This document shows positions 1 through 35,667 of a DNA stretch of 64,000 bases, piece by piece; the stretch's first letter is position 1; each line of letters opens with the position of its first letter. The DNA comes from an uncultured Candidatus Saccharibacteria bacterium (GTDB lineage: Bacteria > Patescibacteriota > Minisyncoccia > UBA6257 > 2-01-FULL-56-20): assembly GCA_964365185.1 (NCBI GenBank), contig CAYIOP010000001.1:34675-98674 (forward strand). Direction: 5' to 3'. Below the pieces are notes generated by a model. That model did not search any database. It saw nothing but the letters and a program-made list of their open reading frames with translations, and was not told the DNA's origin. The translations under genes were made by a program, and so were the position numbers.

Positions 1-353
1 TTTTAAAAGAAGTTATCGGTTGCAGACATAAAGAGGAGTGTAATCATACCTGTAGCGGCGCTTTTAAAGTTACTGAATTTGAATTAAATTTTTATAAAGA
101 TTTTAATATTCCCTTGCCTAATCTTTGTTCAAATTGCCGGCATTTTGAACGATCAGAGGAGATGACTCCGATGAAACTTTTTAGCGGGCATTGTAATTGT
201 TTGGGTGAGAAGTCCACCGGCGGAATTTATCAAAATCAGGTCAATCATTTTCACGGCAAAGAGAAATGTCCGAATGAGTTTGAAACGAGTTATAGTCCAG
301 ATCAAGGAAAAATTGTGTATTGCAAGGAATGCTACCAGCAAGAAGTAGCATAA
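1..353 (+). CDS. Cys-rich zinc-ribbon family protein, 3' fragment (5' end lies outside window)
   Basis: The frame is open from nt 3 to the stop at 351-353. The translation GCRHKEECNHTCSGAFKVTEFELNFYKDF.IPLPNLCSNCRHFER...HFHGKEKCPNEFETSYSPDQGKIVYCKECYQQE matches the C-terminal A'-B' zinc-ribbon pair of the 13175..14977 family (LCSNCRHYERL...HCPNEFETTYAP...IIYCEECYQQEII). Confidence 0.6.
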   Translation, partial: LKEVIGCRHKEECNHTCSGAFKVTEFELNFYKDFNIPLPNLCSNCRHFERSEEMTPMKLFSGHCNCLGEKSTGGIYQNQVNHFHGKEKCPNEFETSYSPDQGKIVYCKECYQQEVA

Positions 354-439: not shown

Positions 440-946
440 CTAATTTTTTTTCGTGCGTTCCAGAAAATCTTTGAGTGATTTAGGGGAGCTCGCAAAATGG
501 AGTAGGATGCCGAAAGTCGCGCCTAGAGTGACTGAGAGTAAGAGGTCGTTGTGTTCTCTAATTAGAAGGTAATCAACCAAGGCGTAGAGTGAGAGCGTAG
601 TGATTAAAAGTACAGTGAGACCGATGGTTTTTAAGCCAGCCACTGTTTTTTTGGCGCTGAAAAGAATAAGAGTGATTAAACTTGAAGCAAAGGCCAACCA
701 GAGATTAAATCCCTGGAAAATTGGGTTATTAGGGAAGCCGACGCTCGTGAACATTCCGGCTTTATAAACTACGATTATCGCCACTAAAATTACTCCTCCC
801 CAAAATCCGGCTTTAATGGATTTTACCTCTTTAACAAAATCCGGATCTTTGGCGGTTTGTTTGGTGGTCAAGACAATAACTAAAAGAATAAACGGCACTA
901 TGACCCAGATGATGAGGTTGAACAAAAAATCCAGGGTTTTAGGCAT
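440..946 (-). CDS. hypothetical integral membrane protein (4-5 predicted TM helices)
   Basis: 168-aa ORF with strongly hydrophobic segments and no recognisable catalytic motif. Confidence 0.4.
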   Translation of the reverse strand: MPKTLDFLFNLIIWVIVPFILLVIVLTTKQTAKDPDFVKEVKSIKAGFWGGVILVAIIVVYKAGMFTSVGFPNNPIFQGFNLWLAFASSLITLILFSAKKTVAGLKTIGLTVLLITTLSLYALVDYLLIREHNDLLLSVTLGATFGILLHFASSPKSLKDFLERTKKN

Positions 947-1101: not shown

Positions 1102-2922
1102 ATGCCTAAATTAAGACCAGATGTAGTTTATTTCGCCAGAACGGATTTTAGGAATACTAAGCGGCTTTTTGGAATTAAACGTAAGGATCGTCGGCAACAC
1201 AACTATGTGGTTGGTAAGACCGGAACCGGTAAAACAGCGTTGATTCATAATATGGTGGTTCAGGATATTACCAATGGCGAGGGGGTCTGCGTGGTCGACC
1301 CTCACGGTGAGTTTGTGGAGAGTTTGCTCGCAAAAATCCCGGAAGAGCGGATTGATGATGTTATTTATTTTAATCCGGCGGATATTGACCATCCAATTGG
1401 GTTCAACCCGCTTGAATTGCCAGACCCTAAATACCGACATTTGGCCGCATCGGGGTTGATGGCGATTTTTACGAAAATTTGGTCTAATGTTTGGTCGGCT
1501 CGGATGGAATATATTTTAAACAACGCAATTTTGGCGCTTTTAGAAAACTCTAATTCAACTTTACTTGGGATAAATCGGATTTTAGTGGATAAAGATTTTC
1601 GTCAAAAGATTGTGGCGAATGTTAAAGACCCGGTGGTCAGGGCTTTTTGGATTAATGAATTTGAGGCCTGGAGAGATCAGTTTAGGAATGAGGCCATTGC
1701 TCCGATTCAAAATAAAGTGGGTCAGTTTTTGTCAACGGATTTAATTCGAAACGTGGTGGGGCAGACCAAAAGCACGATTGATGTTTTTGACATTATGAAT
1801 AATCGAAAGATTTTTCTAGTTAATGTTTCCAAAGGTAGAATTGGTGAAGACAATTCCGCGCTTCTGGGGGCGATGTTGATTACTAAAATTCAACTGGCTG
1901 CGATGGAGCGAGTTCGAATTCCGGAAGAGGAGCGGGCTGATTTTTATCTTTACGTGGACGAGTTTCAAAATTTCGCGACCGATTCTTTTGCGGGAATTTT
2001 GTCGGAAGCCAGAAAATACCGATTAAATTTAATTATTGCCCATCAATATGTCGGTCAGTTAGTGACAGATGTTTCAACTAAGGTTAGAGACGCGGTTTTC
2101 GGTAACTGTGGAACAATGATGGTTTTTAGAGTTGGCGCCACTGACGCCGAATTTTTGGAAAAAGAATTTACACCGGAATTTATGATTGAGGATTTGGTAA
2201 ATTTACCCAATTACGCAATTTACCTTAAATTAATGGTGGATGGCGTGACTTCCCGGCCTTTCTCGGCCGCGACTTTACCACCGTTTAAGATTCCAACTTC
2301 AGCCGTCACAATCGAGCGGGTAGTTGATATTTCTCGATTAAATTATACTTTGCCCAAAGAGGAGGTTGAGGAGGCGATAATTAAGTGGAGTGGCAGTATG
2401 GGCGATTCAGATTCTGGCAGTATAGAGAGGAGAGGTGAAAATGTTTTGGCGGCGGGACATAAAGTTCAGGCCACTTGTTCTTCTTGTGGTAAGCGAACTG
2501 AATTAAATTTTATTCCCACTGAGGGCCGGGCGGTTTATTGTAAAGATTGTCTCCAGAAAATTAAATCCGGAGAGATGTCTAGGGTTAAGGTGGGGAAAAT
2601 TAAAGAGTTAAGGCCGTCTGAGAAAGACCCGTCGGATTTGGCGTTTTTGGGCATTGAATTTAAACAATCGAAGCCGGAAGAAAAGAGGGAAGATGGTTTT
2701 GAACAAAAATCTGGACTGGCAGCGCCACCGACAAAAGAAACTTCTGAATTCCACGAAATTTCGCGGTCAACCGAACCAAAGATTTCCTTAAGTGAGCTTA
2801 AACAAGTGGATACAGTGCCGAGAGACAAGAAATCAGACCAAGTTAGTATTGATGAGTTGAGAAAGTCCATCGAACGGGCGCTTGAAAGCCAAAGCGAATC
2901 AAGTCAAGAGGGGAACGAATGA
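1102..2922 (+). CDS. DUF87-type P-loop NTPase (HerA/TraD/VirD4-like) with long low-complexity C-terminal tail ending in a zinc ribbon
   Basis: Walker A is [10 protein letters not shown], followed by a DPHGEF motif, a Walker-B-like [10 protein letters not shown], then AHQ. The C-terminal [25 protein letters not shown] is the B-type zinc ribbon of the Cys-rich family. The stop overlaps the trmD start (ATGA at 2919-2922). Confidence 0.7.
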
Positions 2923-3605
2923 AAATAAAAACCAAATCCGGAAAAATTCGGTTTGACGCCATTACGATTTTCCCTAAAATATTCGATTCTTATTTGAAAG
3001 AATCGCTTTTTAAGCGCGCTTTGGCGAATAAATTAATTGAATTTAAAGTTTGGAATCTTCGAGATTTTACGCAAGACAAACATCATAAAGTTGATGATCG
3101 GCCGTTTGGGGGCGGGCCGGGAATGGTTTTAAAAATTGAGCCGATATATCGGGCAGTATCGTTTTTAAGCGAAAAACGAAAAGCGAAAAGCGAAAAGTTG
3201 AAAATCAGGGTTATTTTGTTTTCAACAAGAGGAAAAAAGTTAGATGTTAAAATGGCGCGGCGACTTTTGAGTTATGATCAGTTGATTTTAATTTGTGGCC
3301 GGTATGAAGGAGTAGATGAAAGAGTGGTGAGATATGTAGTGGATGAAGAAATTTCAATCGGGGATTATGTTTTATCTGGAGGTGAATTGCCGGCTTTGGT
3401 TTTAGTGGAAACGGTAGCTCGTTTAATCCCCGGTTTTCTCGGAAAATATGAATCCCTTGAGGATGTTAAGGGATTTTATCCGGTTTACACTCGGCCCGGA
3501 GATTTTAAACCGGAGGGGAAAATAAAATTTTTGAGCGCGCCAAAAATTCTTTTGTCTGGAGACCATAAGAAAATAAAAGCGTGGCGGGATAAATTTAACA
3601 ATTAA
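2919..3605 (+). CDS. trmD: tRNA (guanine37-N1)-methyltransferase TrmD
   Basis: Contains [22 protein letters not shown] and [17 protein letters not shown], the SPOUT-fold motifs of TrmD. It also carries an in-frame KRKAKSEK insert encoded by a gaaaagc heptad repeat. Confidence 0.85.
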
Positions 3606-3644
3606 GTTTAATTAAATGGATTGGTATTGTTTATGGATAAAGCT

Positions 3645-3716
3645 ATCAAGATTTTGCAAGTAATTTTCTTCCTAGCCAAAAGGCCTAAGTCAGAAACTTA
3701 CTTGCAAAATCTTGAT
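3645..3716 (+). repeat. long stem-loop: 19-bp perfect inverted repeat (3645-3663 and 3698-3716) with 34-nt loop
   Basis: atcaagattttgcaagtaa ... ttacttgcaaaatcttgat, read directly. It sits between trmD and comEC. A T-rich stretch follows, so it may be a terminator. Confidence 0.4.
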
Positions 3717-3771
3717 TGATTGGTGTAAGTATTTTCTTCTTAGATAAAACGTCTAAATTTGATTTTATTTT

Positions 3772-5199
3772 ATGTTTAAATCGCAGATTGTGACTTTTGC
3801 GGGAGTGTTTTTACTAATCGGTATTTTTGCCGCTTCTTCAGGATGGAGTTTTTACGGGACGAGTTTTTTGATACTTATTTTTCTTTTTGCGTTTTTTTGG
3901 TATAAGAAGAGAGAAAAATTTTATAAGGGAATAGCGCTAATTTTTATTTTTTTCGCTCTCGGATTTTTTTATTATCATTTTTTTACCAATTTTTTTGAAG
4001 TTAGAACCAAAGTAATTTTTAATCAGGAAATCGAATTTGTCGGAAAAGTGGTGAGCGATCCGCGTTTTTTTGAAAATACTCAAGTGTTTGATTTAAAACT
4101 TCAAGAATCTGATCAAGGCACAGTTGTGGTTTTATTGCCTTTGTCGCCGAAATTTGAATATGGCGACCAAGTTAAATTTAATGGAAAAATTGAAAGAGGC
4201 GTGGATAGACGAACTAAACCAACAGTTTTTTTTCCGGACGCGAATTTACTTCAAAAACATCAAGGTTTTTGGGTTAAGGAAAAACTTTTGCGTTTTAAAG
4301 CAGTCCAGCTGGCTCAATTTCGGCGATTTTTATCTCGCGATCAGGCCGCGCTTTTAGCTGGTGAAACCTTTGGTTTTCGAGGAGATTTTACCGAAGAATT
4401 GAAATCGGCGATGAATTTAAGCGGCACTACGCATATCGTGGCTCTTTCTGGATATAATATCGCTATTTTGGTTTTGGCGATTCAAAAAACACTCACCAAT
4501 TTTATGTCTAGGAAAAAGCGATTTTGGCTGATTATTTTGGTAATTCTGCTTTTTTTAATTATGGTTGGGGGTGAGGCGTCGGTGGTGCGGGCGGCGCTCA
4601 TGGGTTTCCTCGTGCTTTTGGCAAGAGAAGCGGGAAGGCCTTACGATGTTTTTCGGGCGATTATTTTGGCGGCGGTATTGATGGCGATACTTAATCCCAA
4701 TATTTTACACTACGACGTTGGCTTTCAACTTTCTTTTTTGAGTTTGTTAGGGTTAGTTTATCTTGAGCCAGTAGTGTCGAAATTTTTTAAAGTCCAAGAT
4801 AAACCCCCAAGTTTTTTAAGCTGGCGGGAAAATGGAATCATTGCGCTTTCGGCCCAGTTGGCTGTGGCGCCGATTATAATTCAAAATTTCAACCAATTCT
4901 CTTTAACTTCCATTTTTAGTAATATTTTAATTTTGGAAGTCGTTCCTTTGGCCATGTTTTTCGGTTTTTTAATTGGAACTCTTGCTTCAATTTGGAGCGT
5001 GTTGGGATTTCTCGCCGCAAAATTTACGGCAGTGATTTTGGCGTATCAGATATGGGTTATTAAATTTTTTGCCGGTATACCTTGGTTTATAGGCGGTCAG
5101 TTTTTCCCTAAATTTTTTTTAATCGGATATTATTTGATTTTGGCGTCTAGCGTATTTTTCTATTATTATGGAAAAAAGAAAGGAACAGGCTTCGGTTAG
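3772..5199 (+). CDS. comEC: ComEC/Rec2 competence channel, N-terminal and competence domains
   Basis: Polytopic membrane protein with NLSGTTHIVALSGYNIAIL, the ComEC competence-domain signature. The MBL domain is encoded by the separate next ORF. Confidence 0.7.
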   Translation: MFKSQIVTFAGVFLLIGIFAASSGWSFYGTSFLILIFLFAFFWYKKREKFYKGIALIFIFFALGFFYYHFFTNFFEVRTKVIFNQEIEFVGKVVSDPRFFENTQVFDLKLQESDQGTVVVLLPLSPKFEYGDQVKFNGKIERGVDRRTKPTVFFPDANLLQKHQGFWVKEKLLRFKAVQLAQFRRFLSRDQAALLAGETFGFRGDFTEELKSAMNLSGTTHIVALSGYNIAILVLAIQKTLTNFMSRKKRFWLIILVILLFLIMVGGEASVVRAALMGFLVLLAREAGRPYDVFRAIILAAVLMAILNPNILHYDVGFQLSFLSLLGLVYLEPVVSKFFKVQDKPPSFLSWRENGIIALSAQLAVAPIIIQNFNQFSLTSIFSNILILEVVPLAMFFGFLIGTLASIWSVLGFLAAKFTAVILAYQIWVIKFFAGIPWFIGGQFFPKFFLIGYYLILASSVFFYYYGKKKGTGFG

Positions 5200-5216
5200 G
5201 CCAATTAATTTTATTT

Positions 5217-6083
5217 ATGAACCAAAAAAATAATTTAAGTTTGATAATTTTTTTAATTTTGATTGTTTTTAATTTAGGAAGTTGGTATTTAGTGTTTTTT
5301 TCAAATGCCTCAAGTGAATCCGGGATTTATTTTTTAGATGTCGGTCAGGGCGATAGCAGTTTGCTTAAATTTGGTGGAGCCGAGATTTTGATTGACGCGG
5401 GCCCAAATTCAAAAGTAATTCAGTCGTTAGGGGCGAAGATGTTGGGGGATAAGTATATTGATTTAGGAGTAATAACTCATCCGGAACTAGACCATTTCAA
5501 TGGATTTAATTATCTTTTGAGCCGATATAATTTTGGGGCTTTTATAATTAACGGTCGGAGAGGAAGGACGGCCGAGTGGTCCGAGTTTTTAGCGGCGGCC
5601 GAGACCCATCAGATTCCAGTTTTAACTTTAGGAGCTGGGGATAAAATTTCTTACAATGATAATGAATTTAAAATTATTTCTCCAAGTGTTCAAGTTTTGG
5701 GTACTGGAGCGATGAATGATACCAGTTTAGTCGGCAAATTAGAAACTAGAAATTTTGGAGCTTTATTTTTAGGCGATATTAGCGAGAGTATTGAAAAATT
5801 TCTAATTCAAAATTATGAGCTTGAATTTCTGCGGGTTGAAGTTCTTAAGATTGCCCACCATGGCTCAAAATTTTCATCCAATAACGATTTTTTAAAAACC
5901 GTAGCGCCGAAAATCGCGTTAATTGGAGTGGGGGCAAGCAATACTTATGGTCATCCGACGCCTCAGACGCTTGAGCGGCTTACTAATTTGGAAGCTAAAA
6001 TTTTTCGAACTGACTTAGATGGAACAATTGTTATTCGGGAAATTGATGACAAATTAAAGGTTTTTTTGGGCATAGAGCAATGA
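5217..6083 (+). CDS. Metallo-beta-lactamase-fold protein (ComEC C-terminal domain as separate ORF with own N-terminal TM helix)
   Basis: FLDVGQGDSSLL, ILIDAGP, HPELDHFNG, AHHGS and TYGHP are MBL motifs typical of the ComEC C-terminal domain. The ORF starts 18 nt after the comEC stop. Confidence 0.7.
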   Translation: MNQKNNLSLIIFLILIVFNLGSWYLVFFSNASSESGIYFLDVGQGDSSLLKFGGAEILIDAGPNSKVIQSLGAKMLGDKYIDLGVITHPELDHFNGFNYLLSRYNFGAFIINGRRGRTAEWSEFLAAAETHQIPVLTLGAGDKISYNDNEFKIISPSVQVLGTGAMNDTSLVGKLETRNFGALFLGDISESIEKFLIQNYELEFLRVEVLKIAHHGSKFSSNNDFLKTVAPKIALIGVGASNTYGHPTPQTLERLTNLEAKIFRTDLDGTIVIREIDDKLKVFLGIEQ

Positions 6084-13174: not shown

Positions 13175-14977
13175 ATGAATCGGGAAATTCGAAATTGCCA
13201 AAATTGCAAAACTAATTTTGAAATAGACGCTTCGGATTTTAAATTTTATGAAAGGATAAAGGTTCCGCCGCCGACGTGGTGTCCGGAGTGTCGGATAGTT
13301 CGGCGAATGTCGGTTCAGAATCAACGGGCTTTATATAAACGAAAATGTGATTTGTGCGGAAATGAAATGGTAACTTTTTTCTCGCCAGAGGCGCGAGATA
13401 CTGTTTATTGCCAAAAATGTTGGTGGTCGGATAATTGGGACCCGTTTCAATATGGGCTGGAATATGATTTTTCCAAACCGTTTTTCGCTCAATTTAGAGA
13501 ATTATTAGATAGAGTTCCGTGGTCAGCGCTCCAGACAGTTTATACCACGATGGTAAATAGCGAGTATTGCAATATCGCTTCCTATCTAAAGGACTGTTAT
13601 TTAATGTTTAACTCTGATTACAGCGAGGATTGTTATTATGGAACTTATGTGGAACGGAGTAAGCGTTCATTTGATCTTTATATGGCTGACTACGCGGAGA
13701 TTTGTTACGAGAGCAATAATTTAGAGAAATGTTATCACGTTTTTTATTCGAGTAACTGCAATAATTGCATCGATGTTTATTTTTCAAGAAATTTGCGAGG
13801 TTGCTCGAAGTGTTTTGGTTGCGTTAATTTATCCAATAAACAGTATTACATTTTTAATGAGCCCTATTCCAAAGAAGAGTATTTTAGAAAATTGAAACAA
13901 TTCGATTTGGGGTCAAGAAAGACGGTTTTAGAATTACGTCAGCAGATGGCCGACTTTAATCTTAAATTTCCAAGAAAATTTGCGGAAGGATTTAAGAATT
14001 TAAACGTCTCGGGAGATTATGTGTTTAATTCCAAAAATACTTATTTGAGTTATGAAATGGCCGAATCCGAAGATTGTAAATTTTGCCAATTTCTTTTTAT
14101 TGAAACCGCGAAGAATTGTCAAGATGTGACGATGTGGGGTGGGGGACTTACCAACTCTTATGATTCAATGGGTATTGGCGGAGGAGCGGACCAGATTAAA
14201 TTTTCTTTTGATTGTTGGGCAAATCTTATGAATATTGAGTACTGTTTCGATCTTTTGGTTATGAACTCAGACCTTTTTGGGTGCAGCCGATTGAAAAATA
14301 AAAAATTCTGTATTCTAAATAGGCAGTATTCTGAGAAAGAATATAATGATTTAATTCCGAAAATTAAAAAACAAATGGATGAAGTGCCTTATATCGATAA
14401 GAAGGGCCGAGTATATAAATATGGAGAGTTTTTCCCGCCTGAAATCCACTCTTTTGCTTATAATGAAACAATCGCACAGGAATATTTTCCATTGACTAAG
14501 GAAGAAGCTATAGACCAGGGTTTTCGTTGGAAAGATGCTCAAGATAAGAATTATCAAATTACGATTTCAAGCGACCAGTTGGCGGATAATATTAAGGAAG
14601 TTGAGGATGGAATTTTAGGCCAGATAATTGGCTGCGAACATTTTGGTAAGTGCAAAGATCAGTGCTCAGTGGCGTTTAAAATTACTCCTCGAGAATTGGA
14701 ATTTTATAGGGCCGAGAATATCCCAGTGCCTCGATTATGTTCGAATTGCCGGCATTACGAGCGATTAAGGAATAATAATCCTATGAGATTTTATCATCGC
14801 AGGTGTGGGTGTGAGGGGTTGCAAAGCGTAAAGAGCAAGGCGCAAAATAGTTATCAAAACGTGGCTCAACATTTTCATGGCGGCGATCATTGCCCCAATG
14901 AATTTGAAACAACTTACGCGCCGGAGAGAAGAGAAATTATTTATTGCGAGGAATGCTATCAACAAGAAATAATATAG
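13175..14977 (+). CDS. Cys-rich zinc-ribbon family protein (pseudo-symmetric A-B-core-A'-B')
   Basis: N-terminus CQNCKTNFEIDASDFKFYERIKVPPPTWCPECR (A), then KCDLCGNEMVTFFSPEARDTVYCQKC (B). The core has repeated C..C.NC and CFGCVNLSNKQYYIFNEPYSKEEY units. The C-terminus repeats A' (ITPRELEFYRAENIPVPRLCSNCR) and B' (HCPNEFETTYAPERREIIYCEECYQQE). Confidence 0.6.
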   Translation: MNREIRNCQNCKTNFEIDASDFKFYERIKVPPPTWCPECRIVRRMSVQNQRALYKRKCDLCGNEMVTFFSPEARDTVYCQKCWWSDNWDPFQYGLEYDFSKPFFAQFRELLDRVPWSALQTVYTTMVNSEYCNIASYLKDCYLMFNSDYSEDCYYGTYVERSKRSFDLYMADYAEICYESNNLEKCYHVFYSSNCNNCIDVYFSRNLRGCSKCFGCVNLSNKQYYIFNEPYSKEEYFRKLKQFDLGSRKTVLELRQQMADFNLKFPRKFAEGFKNLNVSGDYVFNSKNTYLSYEMAESEDCKFCQFLFIETAKNCQDVTMWGGGLTNSYDSMGIGGGADQIKFSFDCWANLMNIEYCFDLLVMNSDLFGCSRLKNKKFCILNRQYSEKEYNDLIPKIKKQMDEVPYIDKKGRVYKYGEFFPPEIHSFAYNETIAQEYFPLTKEEAIDQGFRWKDAQDKNYQITISSDQLADNIKEVEDGILGQIIGCEHFGKCKDQCSVAFKITPRELEFYRAENIPVPRLCSNCRHYERLRNNNPMRFYHRRCGCEGLQSVKSKAQNSYQNVAQHFHGGDHCPNEFETTYAPERREIIYCEECYQQEII

Positions 14978-22500: not shown

Positions 22501-24207
22501 CTATATAATTTCTTTTAAGTAGCATTCCTTGCATAGAATTTCTTTGTAGTCCTCTAGGGTATAGCTGCTTTGGAATTTACTTTGGCATTTAAAACAGGTT
22601 CGTTCCACTAAAGTTAAATCTTTCACCCAGTCCTGGAATTTTTTTTCAATTCGGCAAAAGGGACATTCGCGCGGCAGAGGTAGATTCATTTGTTTTAGGA
22701 AGTCGAGTTCGGACTGAATGATTTTGAAGCCGCGGTCGCATTTAGCGCAACCAATAATTTCATTTAAAATATCGCGTGGAGCGTCTTTGATATGATCCGG
22801 AAGATGTTCCGATTTAATTGAGATTTGATGATTTTTGGGTTCGCTTTCTTTCCATGCGTAGCCGGCATTTAGTGTTTGTTCTTTTGTAAGCGGAAAAAAA
22901 TTATTGGCCATAGTTTCATTATAGGCCCAAGGACTCATCTCGATTGGGAAAAACTCGCCGTATTTATAAATTTGTCCGCGGCTGTTTTTATAAGGCATCT
23001 CATTCATATGATTGATAATTTTTTCACGGAGTTGCCAATATTCCTTTTCCGGATATTTTTTGTTGAAAATCACAAATTTTCCTTTCTTGAGCGATGAACA
23101 GGCAAAGTAGTTAGCGCCGCCAAGCACGGTATTGCAGTATTCGGCGTCGATTAAATTAATTCCACTTTGAGTGGAAAACTTTACTCGATGAGCTCCTTCT
23201 CCGGTTACGCTTACTTCGTAGCAGAGTTCCATATTGTTGCCCCAACTGGTGATATCATAGCAATTCTTAATGGGTGCAACGGCGAGCATAAATAAATATT
23301 TAGAATCAATCGCTCCGGCGACCTCGTAGCACTCCTTACAATTTTTGGACTCAAAAACATAATTGCCGGTACAGTTCGTCACAAATTCCGAACAATATGG
23401 CAGAGGCGGATGTTTTTGCCAATTTTCTTCACTCAATTTTTGAGCCAGTTTATAGTTTTGATACGAGCCCAAGTCGAATTCTTTTAATTTTTTAGCATAT
23501 TCCTCTGGGGTATATTTCTGATTGAAAAATACATACTTTTGATTTCTAAGATTGGTCGAGCCAAAACAATTTTGGCAATTTGCGGAGTCCCGAAGAAAAT
23601 GGCAGTTAAGCGATTCAGTAACCTGCTTACGCAGGCCAACGCACCGGTTATTTTTGAAAGAATGTTCGCAGTCGTAGCAGAGTTCGGAGTGACTAATAAG
23701 TGATGAATCGAGCGTATTTTTGGAGTTAGTGACGTAGAAGCCATAGCTGCAATCTTCACTGAAGTCGGCATGAAACAGGAGGTAGCAATTTTTGAGATTG
23801 CCAACATGATTGTTGTATTCGGAGTTGATCATCGTGGGCAAGGCATTCGAGAGTCCGATGGTCGGTACTTCCAGCCAAAATTTCTTTAATTGCTCAAAGA
23901 AGGGTTGATTAAAGTCATAGTCGCGGCTATATTCATAAGGGTCCCAGTCATCAGACCACCAACATTTAGGGCAGTAGATTTTATAAAGGGACTCTGGAGA
24001 AAACATGGAAAGAGAGTTTTTGCCGCAAAGATCGCATTTCCGCTTGTAAATTTTTAAAAGATTAAAAAAAGCCAGGCGCCTTTGAAAGCGGCACTTGGGA
24101 CAAAAAGTCGGTGGCGGGACTTCAATTTTTTGGTAGAAATTAAAGTCCTCGGGTTCGATGGTGAATTCAGATTTGCAATCTTGACAAATCTTTGTTTCTG
24201 AATTCAT
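22501..24207 (-). CDS. Cys-rich zinc-ribbon family protein (tandem array member 1)
   Basis: MNSETKICQDCKSEFTIEPEDFNFYQKIEVPPPTFCPKCRFQRR at the N-terminus. Internal NCQNCFGSTNLRNQKYVFFNQKYTPEEY, and a C-terminal CPFCR...YKEILCKECYLKEII zinc-ribbon pair. Confidence 0.6.
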   Translation of the reverse strand: MNSETKICQDCKSEFTIEPEDFNFYQKIEVPPPTFCPKCRFQRRLAFFNLLKIYKRKCDLCGKNSLSMFSPESLYKIYCPKCWWSDDWDPYEYSRDYDFNQPFFEQLKKFWLEVPTIGLSNALPTMINSEYNNHVGNLKNCYLLFHADFSEDCSYGFYVTNSKNTLDSSLISHSELCYDCEHSFKNNRCVGLRKQVTESLNCHFLRDSANCQNCFGSTNLRNQKYVFFNQKYTPEEYAKKLKEFDLGSYQNYKLAQKLSEENWQKHPPLPYCSEFVTNCTGNYVFESKNCKECYEVAGAIDSKYLFMLAVAPIKNCYDITSWGNNMELCYEVSVTGEGAHRVKFSTQSGINLIDAEYCNTVLGGANYFACSSLKKGKFVIFNKKYPEKEYWQLREKIINHMNEMPYKNSRGQIYKYGEFFPIEMSPWAYNETMANNFFPLTKEQTLNAGYAWKESEPKNHQISIKSEHLPDHIKDAPRDILNEIIGCAKCDRGFKIIQSELDFLKQMNLPLPRECPFCRIEKKFQDWVKDLTLVERTCFKCQSKFQSSYTLEDYKEILCKECYLKEII

Positions 24208-24316
24208 TTTATTTTTTCCGAAATAAATTTGAGAGGTGATTTTTAAGTAGGGTCCAAAAAGCCCCTACGATAAGCTTAATAGTTCTAATGCGTATTTTGA
24301 TACTTGGATTCATGGA

Positions 24317-26107
24317 TTATTGAATTTCACCTTGATAGCATTCGGAACAGTAAATTATTTCAGGATCATTGTTTGAGTAGCTGGTCATAAATTTATTTTG
24401 ACACTTTGTTTCGCCATGAAGATGGGCGGTTCGATTTTCGTATATTATCTCTCCAGTTGAGTTTTCTGAAGTTCTTCCGCCACACATACAAAATTTTTCA
24501 GATAGATTATAGCGTTCTCGGCCGTTATTTCTGATATGGCGTCGGCATTCGGGGCAAAGTCGCGGAAGGGCGACGTTAATCATTCGGTAGAACTCCAGTT
24601 CCTTGGGAACGATTTTGAAAGCTCTTTTGCATTGGTGGGCACAATCTCCTCTATGAGAGCAGTTGATAATTTTTTCTAATATTTTGTCGTCCGTGTTTTT
24701 TATGTTATCCGGCAGATCTTCGGGATTTATGGTGTTCGCGTAGGTTTTTAGTTCCGCGTCTCGCCACCAAAGTTTTTGTTTTTGAGCTTTTTCTTTGGTG
24801 ATCGGGAAATAGCGCTGAGCTAAGGAGTTATTGTAGGCGCAGGTTGAAAATTCCGGCGGGAAGAATTCGCCGTACTTGTAAATGTGGCCAAGTTCGTTGA
24901 TGTAGGGTGTTTGCTTCATTTGTTCTATAATCTTCGGCACTATTTTTTCATATTCTTCCTTCGTGTATTGTTTATTTAGAATGCAGTACTTTTTTTTTCT
25001 TAACCCAACGCAGCCGAAAAGATGTTCGCATGATTGGCAAGTATCGCAGTATTGTAAATCTAAGCTTTCTCTGGCGCCGTTGGTGAATCTGATGTTTTGG
25101 GAATTAAACGCGCTGCTGGCGTAGATAAGCTCGCATTTTTCGCCTCCAGCGAAGACGTCGTAGCTGTCTTTGATTCTTCGGCCGCAGATTAGGAGATATT
25201 TGCTGTTTTCCGCGCCGTCTCTAACTTCGAAGCTATGCTGACAGTTTTTGGCGTTTTCGATGTCGTTGCCGGTGCAACCAACGGTGTTTTTTTCCGCCAT
25301 ATACTTTCTTGGGATTTTCGATTTAAGTTTTTCGAATTCTTTTTTGGCATCTTTTAAAGTTTTATGACTACCGAGATTTAGCTCCGACATTTTTTTTTCA
25401 TATTCTTTTTTGGAGTAGGGTTGATTGAAAATATGATATTGTTTGTTTCGTAAACCGACGCAGCCGAAACAGTTGGAGCAATTTCGGCAGTCGTAGAGAA
25501 ATTTTGAATCTAAACATTCATTGCATTGTTCAGAAAATAAAAGATTGAAACAGCGAGTACAAGAACAGGATTCATACATGTTTTCGCAAAAAATTAATAT
25601 TGAGACGTCAATGCATTTGCGGCTTACGGCAGGCGTGTCTGAATACATGCAGTCTTCAGAGAGATAGGCTCCGGAGACGAGGTAACAATTTTTTGAGTTT
25701 GAGGCCCAGGTGCAGTAATCGCAGTTTATTGAGTTAATTGAACGTACATTCGCTAAAGGAACAGAGTTTAAGAGTTTTAGAAATTGCTCGAAAAAGGGCT
25801 TTGAAAAATCGTAGTCGAGGCCATATTCGGTCGGATCCCAGGCATCGGACCACCAATAGTCGGAATCGTATATTTTGAGTCCTCTTTCCGAAGGATATCT
25901 AGAAATGAGTTCTTCGCTGTGGCCGGGTGCCTGGCATTTGACGCGGAAGAGCGCACCTTCATTCGACCAAATGAGTTTATGCATCATTCGGCACTTAGGA
26001 CAAAAAGTCGGCGGTGGGACTTTAATTTTTTCGTAGAAAGCGAAGTCATCGGGTTCGATGGTGAAAGTTGATTTGCAGTTTTGGCAAATTCGCGAATCTT
26101 GAGTCAT
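24317..26107 (-). CDS. Cys-rich zinc-ribbon family protein (tandem array member 2)
   Basis: MTQDSRICQNCKSTFTIEPDDFAFYEKIKVPPPTFCPKCR at the N-terminus. Internal CFGCVGLRNKQYHIFNQPYSKKEY and CEHLFGCVGLRKKKYCILNKQYTKEEY, and a C-terminal CPECR...IIYCSECYQGEIQ. Confidence 0.6.
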   Translation of the reverse strand: MTQDSRICQNCKSTFTIEPDDFAFYEKIKVPPPTFCPKCRMMHKLIWSNEGALFRVKCQAPGHSEELISRYPSERGLKIYDSDYWWSDAWDPTEYGLDYDFSKPFFEQFLKLLNSVPLANVRSINSINCDYCTWASNSKNCYLVSGAYLSEDCMYSDTPAVSRKCIDVSILIFCENMYESCSCTRCFNLLFSEQCNECLDSKFLYDCRNCSNCFGCVGLRNKQYHIFNQPYSKKEYEKKMSELNLGSHKTLKDAKKEFEKLKSKIPRKYMAEKNTVGCTGNDIENAKNCQHSFEVRDGAENSKYLLICGRRIKDSYDVFAGGEKCELIYASSAFNSQNIRFTNGARESLDLQYCDTCQSCEHLFGCVGLRKKKYCILNKQYTKEEYEKIVPKIIEQMKQTPYINELGHIYKYGEFFPPEFSTCAYNNSLAQRYFPITKEKAQKQKLWWRDAELKTYANTINPEDLPDNIKNTDDKILEKIINCSHRGDCAHQCKRAFKIVPKELEFYRMINVALPRLCPECRRHIRNNGRERYNLSEKFCMCGGRTSENSTGEIIYENRTAHLHGETKCQNKFMTSYSNNDPEIIYCSECYQGEIQ

Positions 26108-26130
26108 AGATGATTTTTGTTTTTTTGATA

Positions 26131-26162
26131 CTATTCTCTAATTCGCGCGAATTAGAGAATAG
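26131..26162. repeat. 32-nt perfect palindrome between array members 2 and 3
   Basis: ctattctctaattcgc|gcgaattagagaatag, read directly. It is preceded on the + strand by a T-run. Confidence 0.5.
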
Positions 26163-26181
26163 TTGGATAGAAGCGCCTTAA

Positions 26182-27834
26182 TTATGATATTTCGGCTTGA
26201 TAACATTCAACGCAGGAAATTTTTTGAAAAGTAAGTTTGGGTGAATAGTAATGTTCAATCTCTTTTTGGCAATAGACACATTTTCCTTTTTGCGGCTCCA
26301 TCATTAGAGTTAAGGGGTGAAAGCGGTTTAGGGTTCGCCAGTCAAAATGTTGTCTTGGTAGAGGGATTTCATGCTCGCGGTAAAACTGAAGTTCTGACGG
26401 GGCAATATTATAGCTTAATTTGGTTTCTGGACAGATGATGCGTTGTTTAGTAATGTCGTCTTTAACATTATCTATTTTATCCGGTAGGTCTTCCGACCTA
26501 ACTCCAACGTATTCCGGATTTTTAGGTTCTTCCCATTTAGCTCCGAATTTTAAAGCGCCCTCTTTTGTTTCGGGAAACATAATTTGAGCGAGAGAATAGT
26601 TGTATCCAGCATAGGCGGCGCTAAGTGGAAAAAATTTTCCCCACTCCCCTCTTTGCTTCATATCTGTTTCTATCTTTTTCTTTAGCGTTTCGTATTCTTG
26701 TTGGCTATATTGTTTGTTTAAAATGCAATATTTTTTCTTTCTTAATCCCACGCAGCCAAAACAATATTCGCACTCTTCGCAGTTATCCAGATAAGCGCTG
26801 TAGCGACAATAGCCGGTATAGAGATTACAGAAATTTTCATATCCCCATTGGTCCAGGGAACTCCGGGCGCATTTTTCCGATGGGCAGCCCACCGCATCAA
26901 TGAGGTCTTTACCGTCTATTCCCCTTAAAGAATAGCGGCAATTTTCCGATCTTTCCAAAAAATAACAGCTATGGCAGTTTTTGTTTTCCAATAAAAAGTT
27001 GCCGCTGGAATTTGAAATTTGGACATTAAAATGCGCGCGGTGAATCGTGTCTTTTTGAAGATGGCTCCAAAATTCTTTTTTTAGTTTTTCGACAGCGGAA
27101 TAAGAATTGAGTTCAAAACTTTTTATTTTTTTAAAATATTCTTCTTTTGAATAAGGTTGGTTTAAAATATAATATTGTTTATTTCTCAAATTCCAGGACA
27201 TAAAACAGTTTTGACAGTTGCGGCAGTCATAGAGAAAAGCGCCTTCTATACAGTCACGTGAGTTGAAGCAGTGTCGCAGTTTGAATCCCTTAAAACAATA
27301 GAGGCAGTCATAACATTTTTCTAGTTCAAAACAATAAGTTATATCCAGAGAATTTTTCGAGGCGAAAGCCCTGTAGCCATAACTGATATCCTCGATTTTC
27401 CAAGCTGACCTGGTGAGGTAGCAATTTTTTGATTCCCAAACATCGTCGGTCCAGTCACAATTGGTGTTTCTAAGACCGGTTTGATGAGGATGAGGAACTT
27501 TGGCTTGAAGTTCCATTAATTGTTCAATAAAAGGCCGGGAGGCGTCATAATCGCGGCCGTAGGCTAAAGAATCCCAGGCGTCTGAGACAAATTCTTCCCG
27601 TTCGTAGATTGGAAAAGGCACGCTCTCGGGTAAGACGGTAATGAGCCGTTTACCGCTTAGGGCGGAATTGGTGATTCGAAAGCGGCCAAAAATCCAAAAG
27701 GACAAAAGATATTTCCATCGACAGAGTGGGCATTGGTCTGGCGTCGGCAAATCGAATCTACTATAGAATTCTTTGTCGATATCTTCTATTTGAAATTCTT
27801 TTTGGCAGTTTCGGCACGTTTTGTTTTCAGTCAT
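26182..27834 (-). CDS. Cys-rich zinc-ribbon family protein (tandem array member 3)
   Basis: Start placed at M13 (MTENKTCRNCQKEFQIEDIDKEFYSRFDLPTPDQCPLCR) to avoid a 34-nt overlap with the upstream gene. Internal CQNCFMSWNLRNKQYYILNQPYSKEEY and CEYCFGCVGLRKKKYCILNKQYSQQEY, and a C-terminal ISCVECYQAEIS. Confidence 0.55.
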   Translation of the reverse strand: MTENKTCRNCQKEFQIEDIDKEFYSRFDLPTPDQCPLCRWKYLLSFWIFGRFRITNSALSGKRLITVLPESVPFPIYEREEFVSDAWDSLAYGRDYDASRPFIEQLMELQAKVPHPHQTGLRNTNCDWTDDVWESKNCYLTRSAWKIEDISYGYRAFASKNSLDITYCFELEKCYDCLYCFKGFKLRHCFNSRDCIEGAFLYDCRNCQNCFMSWNLRNKQYYILNQPYSKEEYFKKIKSFELNSYSAVEKLKKEFWSHLQKDTIHRAHFNVQISNSSGNFLLENKNCHSCYFLERSENCRYSLRGIDGKDLIDAVGCPSEKCARSSLDQWGYENFCNLYTGYCRYSAYLDNCEECEYCFGCVGLRKKKYCILNKQYSQQEYETLKKKIETDMKQRGEWGKFFPLSAAYAGYNYSLAQIMFPETKEGALKFGAKWEEPKNPEYVGVRSEDLPDKIDNVKDDITKQRIICPETKLSYNIAPSELQFYREHEIPLPRQHFDWRTLNRFHPLTLMMEPQKGKCVYCQKEIEHYYSPKLTFQKISCVECYQAEIS

Positions 27835-27836
27835 AT

Positions 27837-29504
27837 TTAGATAACTTTTTGTTGGTAGCAACTTTCGCAAAAAATAATTTCGGGTTGGTCAGGAGCGAAA
27901 TTTGTTTTAATTGGTTTTTGACAGTTCGCGCAATTGCGATCAAATATTTTAATTGGTCCTCTTCTATTTATCCTAGCTTGGTGGCGACAGTAAAAGCAAT
28001 GCCGCGGGAGAGGTATGGACATGAGTTTATAAAACTGGAATTCAGCTTGAATGATTTTGTAGTTTCGTTTACAAGAAACGCAGGCGAGAATTTCGTCTAT
28101 AATTTTTTCTGAAATTTCGCTAATATCATCTGGAATCTTTTCTGATTTCAGAGTTTCTTTTCCGGTTGTTATTTGAAGATTATCTTCCCAGCGATAACCT
28201 TGGGCAAGGGCTTCGTCTTTAGTGAGCGGCAAGTTGTCTTGCGCAATAGTTTCGTTATAGGCGAAGAGATTAAGAGCTGGTGGGAAGAAGAGTCCATAAT
28301 CCCCCGCCTGAATAAGTTCCTGCTTGATTGTGTTCGTAATTTGCCGATATTCTTTTTCGTCGTAGCGTTTATTTAGAATTGAAAATTTGGAGTTTTTTAT
28401 GCCATCGCAACCGAAACATTCTTGGCTATTACGCGTGGCGAAGCAATAAGCGACATCTTGAGCGTTTTCCACCCACCAAGAGCTGATGACTCTGGCGCTA
28501 TAACCAGTGGCAACTGCTTCCAACAACAATTCGGAGTTGCGGCCATGGCCGATAATGTCGTAGGTGTCTTTTGCTAATTTAACCGAGAAAGAGTAGTTGA
28601 CGTTTTCACAAAAGGCTAATTCAAATGAGGAGCGACAATTTTTTGATTCAAAAATGTAGTCGCCGGTTACAGCCACACTTTTTAGATTGTTGTTTTCGCG
28701 GCGTGGGAATTTAAGAGAAAATTCATCAAAGTTTTTCGCGAATTCTTTTATGGCGCTATAGCTGCCGATAATTGGTTCGACTTTCTTTTTCCACTCTTCT
28801 TTAGAGAGCGGTTCATTTAGAAAATGGTATTTTTTATGGCGAAGATTAACACAACCGAAGCAATTTTGAAGACCGACGCAATTTAAGAGAAATGAGGAAT
28901 CGAGGCATTCGGAAACATTTTGAGACCAAGAGACGCCTTTGCTGTTGTGAATATTTACTCCTTCGTAAATGTTTTCTGATTTATCAATATTGTAGCCGTC
29001 AAAGACATTGCGGCACTGGAGCATTCCGCGAGAATAGGCGCAGTTTTCATTATTGGGTCCGGAGTTGGCGACGAGATAGCAGTCCTTGTTGCCGCCAGCA
29101 AAGTTTTCATACGGACTGTTTACGCTTTTCATTACGTCGCTGCGGTAAAGTGCACATTTAGGAACTGAATGGGTTAATTCTTTGAATTGATCGAAAAAAG
29201 GCCGATTTGAATTATAAACTCGGCCGTAAGAAAAAGAATCCCATTTATCGCTATGCCAGCAATCGGGACAATATACCGTGAAAGTTGAGGAAGGGCTATA
29301 CATTGAAATAATCGGCTCATGGCAGAGATCACAGGAACGATTATATAAAACAAATTCGTTTCGAAATTGGGCCTTTCTTTTAAAGCGGCATTCAGGACAT
29401 AAAATAGGCGCCGGAACGCCCATTTTTTTATAGAAAGTGAAGTCGTCGGGTTCGATGGTGAACCCATTTTTGCAATTCTGACAAATTCTTGAATCTTGGA
29501 TCAT
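27837..29504 (-). CDS. Cys-rich zinc-ribbon family protein (tandem array member 4)
   Basis: MIQDSRICQNCKNGFTIEPDDFTFYKKMGVPAPILCPECRFKRK at the N-terminus. Internal NCFGCVNLRHKKYHFLNEPLSKEEW, and a C-terminal CFYCRHQ...IIFCESCYQQKVI. Confidence 0.6.
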   Translation of the reverse strand: MIQDSRICQNCKNGFTIEPDDFTFYKKMGVPAPILCPECRFKRKAQFRNEFVLYNRSCDLCHEPIISMYSPSSTFTVYCPDCWHSDKWDSFSYGRVYNSNRPFFDQFKELTHSVPKCALYRSDVMKSVNSPYENFAGGNKDCYLVANSGPNNENCAYSRGMLQCRNVFDGYNIDKSENIYEGVNIHNSKGVSWSQNVSECLDSSFLLNCVGLQNCFGCVNLRHKKYHFLNEPLSKEEWKKKVEPIIGSYSAIKEFAKNFDEFSLKFPRRENNNLKSVAVTGDYIFESKNCRSSFELAFCENVNYSFSVKLAKDTYDIIGHGRNSELLLEAVATGYSARVISSWWVENAQDVAYCFATRNSQECFGCDGIKNSKFSILNKRYDEKEYRQITNTIKQELIQAGDYGLFFPPALNLFAYNETIAQDNLPLTKDEALAQGYRWEDNLQITTGKETLKSEKIPDDISEISEKIIDEILACVSCKRNYKIIQAEFQFYKLMSIPLPRHCFYCRHQARINRRGPIKIFDRNCANCQKPIKTNFAPDQPEIIFCESCYQQKVI

Positions 29505-29520: not shown

Positions 29521-29790
29521 TTAAAGGATTTGATAGAGGGTTTCTATGTTATCGGTTCGTGCATCGATGTAAAACTTTCCAAATTCCTGTCTTAGAACCA
29601 GTAAGGAATATCTTTGTTCGTTCCACTTTGGATCTTCGAGCGCGAAATCCAAAAGTTCAATCCCCCGTTCAAGGGCCTCCTTAAATAATTTATCGTTTTC
29701 TGTTTGCCAAGTTTTGGCTCGCATAATTTCAGAACCAATCATAAGGAGTTGCTGGCTCTTGGAAAAAATATTCCATCTCTTTTGGGTCAT
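29521..29790 (-). CDS. hypothetical small protein
   Basis: 89-aa ORF tightly packed between the Cys-rich array and the DUF87 ATPase. No motif recognised. Confidence 0.3.
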   Translation of the reverse strand: MTQKRWNIFSKSQQLLMIGSEIMRAKTWQTENDKLFKEALERGIELLDFALEDPKWNEQRYSLLVLRQEFGKFYIDARTDNIETLYQIL

Positions 29791-30093
29791 TTAAAAAAGC
29801 AAATTTTCAACTACTTTTTTAACCTTTTCTTTGATAGCGGAGTCCTGAATTTCCATTGAGCGATTACCAATAGTCGGGCGAATATTAATCATTGAAACGT
29901 AATCAATGCGCTTTTCGAGTGGATAGATGTTTGAGCCCCATAGATTTTTGAAATTTGAGCCATCAGCTTGAAGTTCCTCGGCGCAGTCAATATGGAGTTC
30001 GCAGTTCATACTTAAAATTCTTTTTTCAATATCAACCACCACTTTTATAAATGAGATGTCTTTTGGTAAAATGGTTTTTTCGCGGACAATCAT
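29791..30093 (-). CDS. hypothetical small protein (start trimmed to M28 to avoid overlap with ATPase)
   Basis: The ORF track gives 29791..30174. The first 27 codons overlap the ATPase C-terminus, and the internal Met at 30093 abuts the ATPase stop at 30098. Confidence 0.3.
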   Translation of the reverse strand: MIVREKTILPKDISFIKVVVDIEKRILSMNCELHIDCAEELQADGSNFKNLWGSNIYPLEKRIDYVSMINIRPTIGNRSMEIQDSAIKEKVKKVVENLLF

Positions 30094-30097
30094 GATT

Positions 30098-31564: not shown

Positions 31565-31566
31565 AT

Positions 31567-32154
31567 TTATAAGTCGGCAGGGTTTATTAATTCTAGCTCT
31601 TTTAAAATAACTTCAAAATTATGAATGGTTTTTTTAACATCACTTGAGTCGATTTCAAAATTGGGATCGTCGACTATTCTATTGTGATATTCGTGGGCTT
31701 TCATGCCGGCGCGCCTGATCCAACCCAGTTCCTCGGACATAATTTGATTGATTTTATCGCCGGTGTTCTCGCCGCTAAAGCCAACGTTAGTTAGGGCTTG
31801 GCCCACAAATTTATCAGCTTCGATGATGGCCAATTTCATCTGATCTAGATTGCCTGAAAAAGCTTTTTCTCGAATTGAGCACCAGAAATTTAGCGCGGCT
31901 TTTTTTTCAGGAGTAAGTGGAGCAGGGGGTCGTTTTTTGATATTGATATGGGGCCTGAACATTCTGGCTTTATTTAAGAGAAATAAAAAGGTGACAAAGA
32001 GGCCAATGTCAACAGCAATCCAAAGAATTTTGAAATCAAAAGCTGGTTTTCTTGGCCAAGTAGAGAGGTTTAGATAAATGGGCCAAGCTAAGAGAGAAAG
32101 GCCGATAATAAAAACTAGACCGTGCAGAAATTTTAAAAGCTTTTCGAAATTCAT
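31567..32154 (-). CDS. hypothetical membrane protein (2 TM) adjacent to ATPase
   Basis: 195 aa with two N-terminal hydrophobic helices, then a soluble domain. Its stop is 3 nt before the ATPase start. Confidence 0.4.
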   Translation of the reverse strand: MNFEKLLKFLHGLVFIIGLSLLAWPIYLNLSTWPRKPAFDFKILWIAVDIGLFVTFLFLLNKARMFRPHINIKKRPPAPLTPEKKAALNFWCSIREKAFSGNLDQMKLAIIEADKFVGQALTNVGFSGENTGDKINQIMSEELGWIRRAGMKAHEYHNRIVDDPNFEIDSSDVKKTIHNFEVILKELELINPADL

Positions 32155-32166
32155 AAATAATTTGAA

Positions 32167-33552: not shown

Positions 33553-33599
33553 ATATTTAATTATAAACTGACTACTGTTTTGACGCTAGTATTTCGATA

Positions 33600-34628: not shown

Positions 34629-34715
34629 AGTTTAGAATTCATTATATCATATAGAATTTATTAGTCAACTGTGGACAAGTCCCTCGCTTTTTAGTCAAAG
34701 AATGAGGGATGAAGA

Positions 34716-35630: not shown

Positions 35631-35636
35631 GGAGAT

Positions 35637-35667
35637 TAGGTGATAGGTTTTAGGTTTTAGGTGGCAG
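35637..35667. repeat. heptad-periodic (T)AGG repeat between secD and secF
   Basis: tagg tgatagg ttttagg ttttagg tggcagg, with TAG at 35637, 35644, 35651 and 35658. Confidence 0.5.

Follow-up and report, generated by a model that had tools for sequence, protein, structure and literature searches.

A CxxC-x17-CxxC zinc finger on a TrwB/VirD4-like ATPase of Patescibacteria and its distant relatives in neighbouring Cys-rich proteins

Beyond its catalytic core, a P-loop ATPase (ATPase 1) encoded in the 64,000-nucleotide stretch of patescibacterial DNA analysed here (the window) carries a short peptide with two pairs of cysteines, and the same window encodes a family of Cys-rich proteins with peptides of similar appearance, termed B-ribbons. 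A sequence-only reading of the window classed all of these as zinc ribbons of one type. It proposed that a small domain shared by a motor and a neighbouring paralog family argues that the two interact, or that they were assembled from the same domain pool. The locus therefore raises three linked questions: what the ATPase module is, whether its likeness to the B-ribbons reflects common descent, and what a shared domain of this kind can say about interaction. The coordinates of the features discussed below are collected in Table 1.

The ATPase 1 finger and its flanking regions

The core of ATPase 1 comprises its first ~430 residues. In a Pfam profile search, the protein matched PF10412 at 54.2 bits (cutoff 20.5), PF12696 at 30.7 bits and PF02534 at 27.9 bits, and DUF87 was also matched. 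Comparison with PDB sequences identified TrwB as the nearest solved sequence (E 2e-5). Transmembrane (TM) segments are absent from ATPase 1 and from its paralog ATPase 2, as judged by the lack of any hydrophobic 19-mer above threshold.

The Cys peptide in the tail of ATPase 1 is real, and its 29 residues correspond to aa 458–486 of the open reading frame, nt 2473–2559, one codon away from the interval 2470–2556 at which it was first placed. Within it, the motif CSSC-x17-CKDC (aa 459–483) holds the ligands C459-x2-C462-x17-C480-x2-C483, with exactly 17 residues separating the two CxxC pairs. The Pfam model PF23477 (zf_Tbcl_2, 'probable treble clef zinc finger') matches aa 455–487 at 45.6 bits (cutoff 27, E 5.8e-12), and the NCBIfam model TIGR04272 ('CxxC-x17-CxxC domain') matches the finger at 45.4 bits (cutoff 36). 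The related model PF13451 (zf_Tbcl, the type of the A-ribbons described below) does not match ATPase 1. The feature is thus a canonical Cys4 CxxC-x17-CxxC finger of the catalogued family PF23477/TIGR04272.

An AF2 model of ATPase 1 residues 445–534, built together with 38 homologous tails, gave pLDDT values of 85–89 across the finger and low confidence in the flanks. Strands are placed at model residues 11–14 and 21–24 and a helix at residues 37–45, with the cysteines at positions 15, 18, 36 and 39. The predicted topology is that of a treble clef, in which the first CxxC lies in a β-hairpin knuckle and the second at the helix start, and not that of a zinc ribbon, as first described, with two hairpins or a rubredoxin-like pair of knuckles. 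The finger region carries a net charge of +6, and the F, P, RP and Y residues conserved in it may serve a purely structural role. A PDB sequence search with the finger profile returned nothing significant, the top match being a single knuckle of RpoP (E 0.059). Similarly, Foldseek found no significant structural neighbour of the finger; the weak ones were PerR/Fur structural zinc sites and the dimeric HPV E7 CR3 (E 0.65–3).

The finger had been described as C-terminal and as preceded by a long Ser/Glu/Lys-rich linker. Instead, the linker between core and finger is short (~27 residues) and rich in Gly, Ser and Asp, and the long Ser/Glu/Lys-rich stretch of 119 residues follows the finger, which is therefore not at the C-terminus. 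This disordered, acidic tail contains the clade-conserved motifs LGIEF, SLSxL and DIDELRxAI, and residues L513, G517, I518, E519, F520, L563, L566 and L594 are invariant across 31 homologs. An LGIEF-like motif occurs in 26 of the 84 ATPase loci introduced below, and is therefore clade-specific. A NUDIX domain was considered as a general feature of the tail and rejected, since it is inserted in only four of 120 homolog tails; further NUDIX-related phmmer matches stemmed from common tail motifs.

Other carriers of the finger were sought among relatives of ATPase 1. PF23477 is listed for all of the 120 best ATPase 1 homologs (62–81% identity), which stem from Liptonbacteria, Jorgensenbacteria, Paceibacteria and others, and 118 of these 120 contain exactly one x17 motif, near residue 455. 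Several homologs have been named 'CxxC-x17-CxxC domain-containing protein' by JGI. A wider set of loci was obtained by scanning one genome per species, which turned up at least 598 relatives; 80 loci were kept and, with four fetched earlier, gave a total of 84. The exact x17 motif is present on 71 of the 84 primary ATPase open reading frames, from Liptonbacteria to Uhrbacteria and Moranbacteria, with the consensus CsxCGKxTxVPFxPdgxRPVYCkxCl. The exact motif is missing from the remaining 13, of which two are nonetheless recognised by the finger profile, and the finger is accordingly dispensable in some lineages. The finger is a widely conserved appendage of this patescibacterial ATPase and, given the many candidate phyla among the loci, probably an old one. 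The architecture is ordinary for the lineage and already annotated in databases.

Table 1. Positions of the ATPase, finger and Cys-rich features in the window.
Feature	Position (nt)	Strand	Basis or remark
Cys-rich paralog, C-terminal end, cut by window edge	3..353	+	frame open to window start
B-ribbon of the edge fragment (H..C variant)	267-332	+	PF23477 match below cutoff
ATPase 1, 606 aa	1102..2922	+	soluble TrwB/VirD4-like (FtsK-HerA superfamily) P-loop ATPase
ATPase 1 Walker A, GKTGTGKT	1213-1236	+	
ATPase 1 Walker B region, YVDEFQNF (VDEFQN motif)	1951-1974	+	
Short Gly/Ser/Asp-rich linker from core to finger, aa 431-457	2392..2472	+	sequence; AF2 pLDDT ~62
CxxC-x17-CxxC zinc finger, predicted treble clef, aa 455-487	2464..2562	+	PF23477, TIGR04272, AF2, conservation
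CSSC-x17-CKDC motif of the finger	2476-2550	+	C459/C462 in 2476-2487; C480/C483 in 2539-2550
Disordered Ser/Glu/Lys-rich tail after the finger	2563..2919	+	composition, conserved motifs
Tail motif LGIEF	2647-2661	+	
Tail motif SLSELK	2785-2802	+	
Tail motif IDELRKSIE	2848-2874	+	
Cys-rich paralog 1, 600 aa	13175..14977	+	
B-ribbons of paralog 1: N-proximal; C-terminal (H-x-H...C variant)	13346-13420; 14891-14956	+	PF23477 match below cutoff
Tandem array of four Cys-rich paralogs (span 22501..29504)	22501..24207; 24317..26107; 26182..27870; 27837..29504	-	
B-ribbons of the array	24036-23962; 22596-22522; 24403-24338; 26280-26203 (x18); 29333-29259; 27932-27858	-	
Conserved partner operon (DUF8128-like protein, small 2-TM protein, ATPase 2)	30098..33552	-	
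ATPase 2, ATPase 1 paralog without finger	30098..31564	-	PF10412, 44 bits
Small 2-TM protein	31567..32154	-	TM prediction
DUF8128-like membrane-anchored protein	32167..33552	-	one N-terminal TM helix predicted

Kinship of the finger with the B-ribbons and with free-standing finger proteins

The Cys-rich family of the window had been counted as six paralogs. Five of these are full-length genes, and the sixth is represented by a C-terminal fragment at the window edge. The AF2 model of paralog 1 has a pLDDT of 95 and a β-solenoid core, and displays at both of its B-ribbons the hairpin and helix arrangement predicted for the ATPase finger. A Foldseek search with the model of a Cys-rich paralog returned only repetitive left-handed β-helix matches (LpxD, GlmU) with TM scores below 0.12, which are uninformative on function. 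The spacing between the B-ribbon Cys pairs is mostly x17, and x18 in paralog 4; His/Cys replaces the first CxxC in paralogs 1 and 3 and in the edge fragment.

At both ends of a paralog, the B-ribbon is adjoined by a second module, the A-ribbon, which also has two CxxC pairs and is likewise predicted to fold as a treble clef. The A-ribbon differs from the ATPase finger and the B-ribbons in its x24 spacing and in a signature of its own, F.I...D..FY...P.P..CP.CR, and scores no more than ~10 bits with every B-type HMM. The A-ribbon model PF13451 matches the N-terminus of paralog 5 alone, at 19.6 bits.

Several comparisons address whether the B-ribbons and the ATPase finger are related. An HMM was built from nine paralog B-ribbons of the window, with the ATPase left out, and was run against 1,020 six-frame open reading frames. 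The ATPase 1 tail was the single match outside the family, at 16.0 bits (E 4.6e-4), and the next sequence scored 5.3 bits. With a ribbon HMM of the Cys-rich family, drawn from 120 homologs per family, the 118 motif-bearing ATPase tails averaged 21.9 bits; shuffled tails that kept the Cys skeleton and composition scored 1.6 ± 3.1 bits, and none of 1,180 reached the real median. Reciprocal HMM and shuffle tests gave a like outcome. Alignment of the ATPase-tail and Cys-family ribbon profiles with hhalign gave a probability of 97% (E 1.2e-10) over 32 columns.

Searches of the curated libraries agree on the family. Neither the ATPase finger nor the B-ribbons match any Pfam zinc-finger model other than PF23477 (TIGR04272 in NCBIfam), and PF23477 is the top match among 24,736 Pfam models for four of the six paralogs, namely three full-length proteins and the edge fragment. 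The scores are 22.9 bits for the edge fragment, 21.7 bits for paralog 1, and 19.9 and 14.9 bits for the others; two paralogs gave no match to PF23477, and no B-ribbon reaches the curated cutoffs of Pfam or NCBIfam.

These sub-threshold scores, together with a pairwise identity of only ~20–30% between the ATPase finger and the B-ribbons, would be compatible with a chance likeness among generic CxxC...CxxC knuckles. That explanation was tested and rejected, and is scarcely credible in view of the hhalign result, the excess of ~20 bits over Cys-skeleton shuffles, the first rank of PF23477 for most of the paralogs, and the matching predicted topology of hairpin knuckle and helix start. Furthermore, the other Cys4 or CxxC...CxxC sites of the window (a DnaJ finger, the A-ribbons and internal Cys repeats) score no more than ~10 bits with all three finger HMMs, such that the similarity clearly exceeds that of generic ribbons. 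Judged by these profile comparisons, the B-ribbons are homologous to the ATPase finger, as distant and divergent members of its family. As regards the domain family, the motor and the Cys-rich proteins thus do carry a module of the 'same type'.

The family extends far beyond the window. When a mixed finger profile was run against 1.84 billion cluster representatives (E ≤1e-3), 6,510 clusters at 50% identity were recovered, archaeal proteins among them. The best 150 of these clusters are mostly proteins of ~200 residues, with two fingers in 133 of the 150 and a maximum of five; 141 of the 150 are net positive and 97 have Lys-rich C-terminal tails. These free-standing multi-finger proteins, whose linkers are rich in Lys, Arg, Gly and Ser, are canonical PF23477 proteins, with named representatives in Thermoplasmatota, Buchananbacteria and Paceibacterota. 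Two small finger proteins of M. mazei, A00184 and A01980, bind zinc as measured by ICP-MS (PMC12704099). The CxxC-x17-CxxC family, including these two, shares with the ATPase finger an identical Cys spacing and the signature CxxCGK...(V)PF.P...RP(V)YCxxC. Its typical carriers hold two to five copies in a small basic protein, whereas ATPase 1 has one copy attached to a 430-residue core. A CxxC-x17-CxxC finger may also terminate some DEAD-box helicases. The neighbourhoods of three free-standing two-finger proteins revealed no consistent context: one adjoins an NYN domain gene and the other two adjoin nothing of this kind.

With an HMM of 311 fingers from multi-finger proteins, the window ATPase finger scored 53.0 bits and ATPase tails averaged 57.6 bits, as against ~16–18 bits for the Cys-family ribbons; the Cys-family ribbon HMM, in turn, scored the window ATPase finger at 23 bits. 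By this measure, the ATPase finger is much more akin to those of the free-standing basic proteins than to the ribbons of its neighbours, and the motor therefore bears the mainstream form of the finger and the neighbours a divergent offshoot. The proposal of a common domain pool can be retained in an ancient sense, at ~20–30% identity, and not in the sense of any special relation between motor and neighbours.

Gene order around the ATPases

In 53 of 83 loci, the gene immediately upstream of that for the finger-bearing ATPase encodes a DUF8128 homolog. In the window, the DUF8128-like gene instead belongs to the partner operon of ATPase 2, on which PF23477 finds no match; homologs of this DUF8128-like protein are annotated as PF26449 DUF8128 in two loci (L001, L004). 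In the clade of the window, the ATPase is duplicated: the fingerless copy, ATPase 2, remains in one unit with DUF8128 and the small TM protein, and the copy that retains the finger, ATPase 1, frequently has Cys-rich β-solenoid genes on its flanks.

The association with Cys-rich genes takes several forms. In L003 and L006, ATPase 1 is immediately preceded by six tandem Cys-rich paralogs. The arrangement ATP1*-CYS-(CYS)-ATP2, in which the asterisk marks the finger, is found in L017, L018, L020, L021, L025 and L027, and the arrangement DUF-ATP1*-ATP2-CYS in L059 and L070. Within the ATPase 1 clade, a Cys-rich gene lies no more than 10 kb away in 14 of 29 loci, as against roughly 14% expected from a rough binomial estimate that is uncorrected for phylogeny. 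When the search was started from the Cys-rich side, there were 29 metagenome loci of 12 kb or more, 10 of which contained an ATPase, with the orders DUF-ATP1*-CYS..-ATP2-CYS.. in L113 and L117 and ATP1*-CYS-CYS-ATP2 in L132, L137 and L144. Support for a functional tie between the ATPases and the Cys-rich family comes from gene order, conserved from both search directions, and not from the ribbon.

The finger might nevertheless be a site of protein–protein contact, through which ATPase 1 docks the Cys-rich paralogs finger-to-finger or via a common partner, such that the shared domain reflects their interaction. This is consistent with the homology of the ribbons and with the repeated co-encoding of the Cys-rich family and both ATPases, whether counted from the ATPase 1 clade or from the Cys-rich side. 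Such a role is unlikely, however. Of the 53 loci with DUF8128 followed by the ATPase, only four contain a Cys-rich gene at a distance of up to 10 kb, and the finger is kept in the 49 without one. Conversely, the ATPase of L012 has no finger yet has a Cys-rich neighbour, and the fingerless ATPase 2 adjoins Cys-rich genes as often as ATPase 1. The much closer kinship of the ATPase finger with free-standing basic proteins than with the paralog ribbons also speaks against it. The shared domain is therefore no argument for interaction by itself, contrary to the first proposal, and in a family of this many clusters it says little on the matter.

A candidate role for the finger and comparison with known systems

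It is proposed, with moderate confidence, that the finger is a tethered docking module that captures substrate, most plausibly nucleic acid, for a TrwB/VirD4-like hexameric motor. Nucleic acid is suggested as the substrate because the closest relatives of the finger are basic proteins with two to five fingers, Arg/Gly/Lys-rich (RGG) linkers and often Lys-rich tails, and because the finger region of ATPase 1 is itself positively charged. By homology with TrwB/FtsK-type motors, the ATPase would form a hexameric ring, held at the membrane through DUF8128. Each subunit would present one zinc-stabilised finger on its ~27-residue linker, followed by the acidic tail with its short conserved motifs. 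The six tethered fingers would then capture substrate for the motor, and the tail motifs (LGIEF, SLSxL and DIDELRxAI) may recruit protein partners.

Alternatively, the finger could have a structural or regulatory role within the motor itself, acting as a zinc- or redox-sensitive module for oligomerisation or autoinhibition that has no substrate or partner specificity. Cys4 sites can serve as redox switches, the N-terminal, dimerising zinc-binding domain of ClpX offers a comparable case, and the weak, non-significant Foldseek neighbours of the finger include structural zinc sites and a dimeric domain. The 13 ATPases that manage without the exact motif would also suggest that the finger is not part of the catalytic machinery. 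This alternative is nonetheless very unlikely, as a low-confidence linker parts the finger from the core and a disordered tail follows it, many small proteins have this domain as their only folded part, and no docking surface is evident.

The finger itself is an ordinary, catalogued domain, and the gene-cluster context is worth more, as it bears on the role of thousands of VirD4-like ATPase genes in Patescibacteria. A survey counted 5,713 VirD4-like homologs in Patescibacteria, of which 148 lie near virB4, and considered a function other than conjugation possible; it makes no mention of the finger (PMC12102498). The present analysis adds that the main VirD4-like family is soluble, is paired with a membrane-anchored DUF8128 protein and almost invariably bears a CxxC-x17-CxxC finger on a tether. 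The ATPase family is duplicated in one large clade and interleaved there with a large Cys-rich β-solenoid family, which supplies concrete candidate partners. The surrounding gene cluster is uncharacterised, and a literature search for the PF23477/TIGR04272 accessions, DUF8128 and zinc fingers in Patescibacteria found no functional study.

A broader and doubtful extension of the docking-module proposal is that the DUF8128 anchor, ATPase 1, the arrays of Cys-rich β-solenoids capped by pairs of predicted treble clefs, and ATPase 2 together constitute an undescribed, Patescibacteria-specific machine, in which the fingers on the motor and on the solenoids would grip the same nucleic acid, or each other. 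If true, this would explain the thousands of VirD4-like genes that are unlinked to any type IV secretion system (T4SS). The finger is a small, expressible domain suited to tests of nucleic-acid or partner binding.

Among the closest known systems are the type IV coupling proteins (T4CPs) TrwB, VirD4 and TraD. ATPase 1 shares with them an FtsK-HerA-type P-loop domain with Walker A and Walker B motifs. Unlike them, ATPase 1 has no N-terminal TM domain and has DUF8128 as its usual neighbour. It also lies far below all NCBIfam equivalog cutoffs for conjugative T4CPs (SXT_TraD, 53 versus 366 bits; CD1115, 52.7 versus 250 bits), and Pfam matches to VirB4 or relaxase are lacking within 10 kb in the annotated neighbourhoods (L001, L003, L004). 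No CxxC-x17-CxxC finger is known from classical T4CPs. Small modules on other ring ATPases offer a parallel for the finger: the FtsK γ domain, borne on a flexible linker, recognises substrate DNA, and the N-terminal zinc-binding domain (ZBD) of ClpX, a Cys4 zinc module, recognises adaptors and substrates. Both resemble the ATPase 1 finger by design analogy only, with no sequence or detectable structural kinship. F-plasmid TraD, like ATPase 1, has a flexible acidic C-terminal tail; that of TraD recruits TraM, and is comparable in design to the tail of ATPase 1 and not its homolog.

Predicted fold of the Cys-rich family

More than 7,400 homologs of the Cys-rich family were found, and tandem arrays of these genes reach eight copies. 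In the source annotation the family members are 'hypothetical', and above-cutoff Pfam domains are absent from them. The AF2 model is very confident (pLDDT 95, pTM 0.91), and predicts short strands wound into a beta-solenoid at the centre, flanked at each end by a pair of treble clefs, one A-ribbon and one B-ribbon. Foldseek comparison of this model returned only a repetitive resemblance to left-handed beta-helices, with TM below 0.12.

Divergence of the B-ribbon among paralogs

The C-terminal B-ribbon of three family members (paralogs 1 and 3 and the edge fragment) has H-x-H-x4-C in place of its first CxxC. Because of this replacement, and because residues H566, H568 and C573 are kept in 116 homologs, the sequence suggests a His/Cys variant of the zinc site. 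The C-terminal ribbon of paralog 4 has x18 spacing. In paralogs 3 and 4 the N-proximal B-ribbon no longer has its cysteines, but the surrounding WWSD/DAWD motif is still in place.

Motifs and variants of the ATPase 1 tail

The disordered tail of ATPase 1 contains three short motifs, LGIEF, SLSELK and IDELRKSIE, which vary little or not at all among close homologs. The first of them, LGIEF, is specific to the clade with the duplicated ATPase, as it is present in only 26 of 84 loci. A NUDIX domain is inserted between the tail motifs in four of 120 ATPase homologs. Other tail variants are a fragment with two fingers and a locus where the ATPase has no finger and a 119-aa ORF of its own, further downstream, encodes it; this arrangement may reflect a split gene or a frameshift.

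Coordinates of the features discussed (window positions unless a locus is named)
Feature	Position	Strand	Remark
H-x-H-x4-C B-ribbons	14891..14956; 24403..24338; 267..332	+; -; +	
Paralogs 3 and 4, N-terminal regions	24317..26107; 26182..27870	-	B-ribbon Cys loss
Cys-rich family	13175..14977; 22501..29504	+; -	also loci L003, L006, L116, L147
ATPase 1 tail motifs	2647..2661; 2785..2802; 2848..2874	+	
ATPase tail variants	L084 11916..12272		homologs P0058, P0075, P0102, P0103; P0259
168-aa protein	440..946	-	five predicted TM segments; between truncated Cys-rich paralog and ATPase 1
ATPase 1 stop/putative trmD start	2919-2922		ATGA overlap
Putative trmD to 288-aa ORF	2919..6083	+	
Putative ComEC-like membrane protein	3772..5199	+	read from translation
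288-aa ORF, putative ComEC metallo-beta-lactamase domain	5217..6083	+	separate ORF; read from translation
ATPase 2/Cys-rich array interval	29521..30174	-	DUF5674 protein and 89-aa ORF
SecD-to-ATPase 2 string	30098..36913; L004 484..6788	- (window)	

Gene neighbourhoods of the two ATPases

The stop codon of ATPase 1 overlaps the start of a putative trmD, which is followed by the ComEC-like gene and the 288-aa ORF; all three labels were taken as putative, from reading of the translations. Among relatives with gene lists that were inspected, this neighbourhood was not seen. Upstream, the 168-aa protein is encoded on the strand opposite to both flanking genes and has no Pfam match.

The interval that separates ATPase 2 from the Cys-rich array holds two ORFs: one encodes a DUF5674 protein (127 aa, 89.5 bits), and the other, of 89 aa, gave no hits. 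ATPase 2 itself belongs to a conserved gene string comprising SecD, SecF, a Sigma70_r4 plus HARE-HTH protein, the membrane-anchored DUF8128 protein, a small TM protein and ATPase 2, and the window shares this same string with a distant relative (locus L004).
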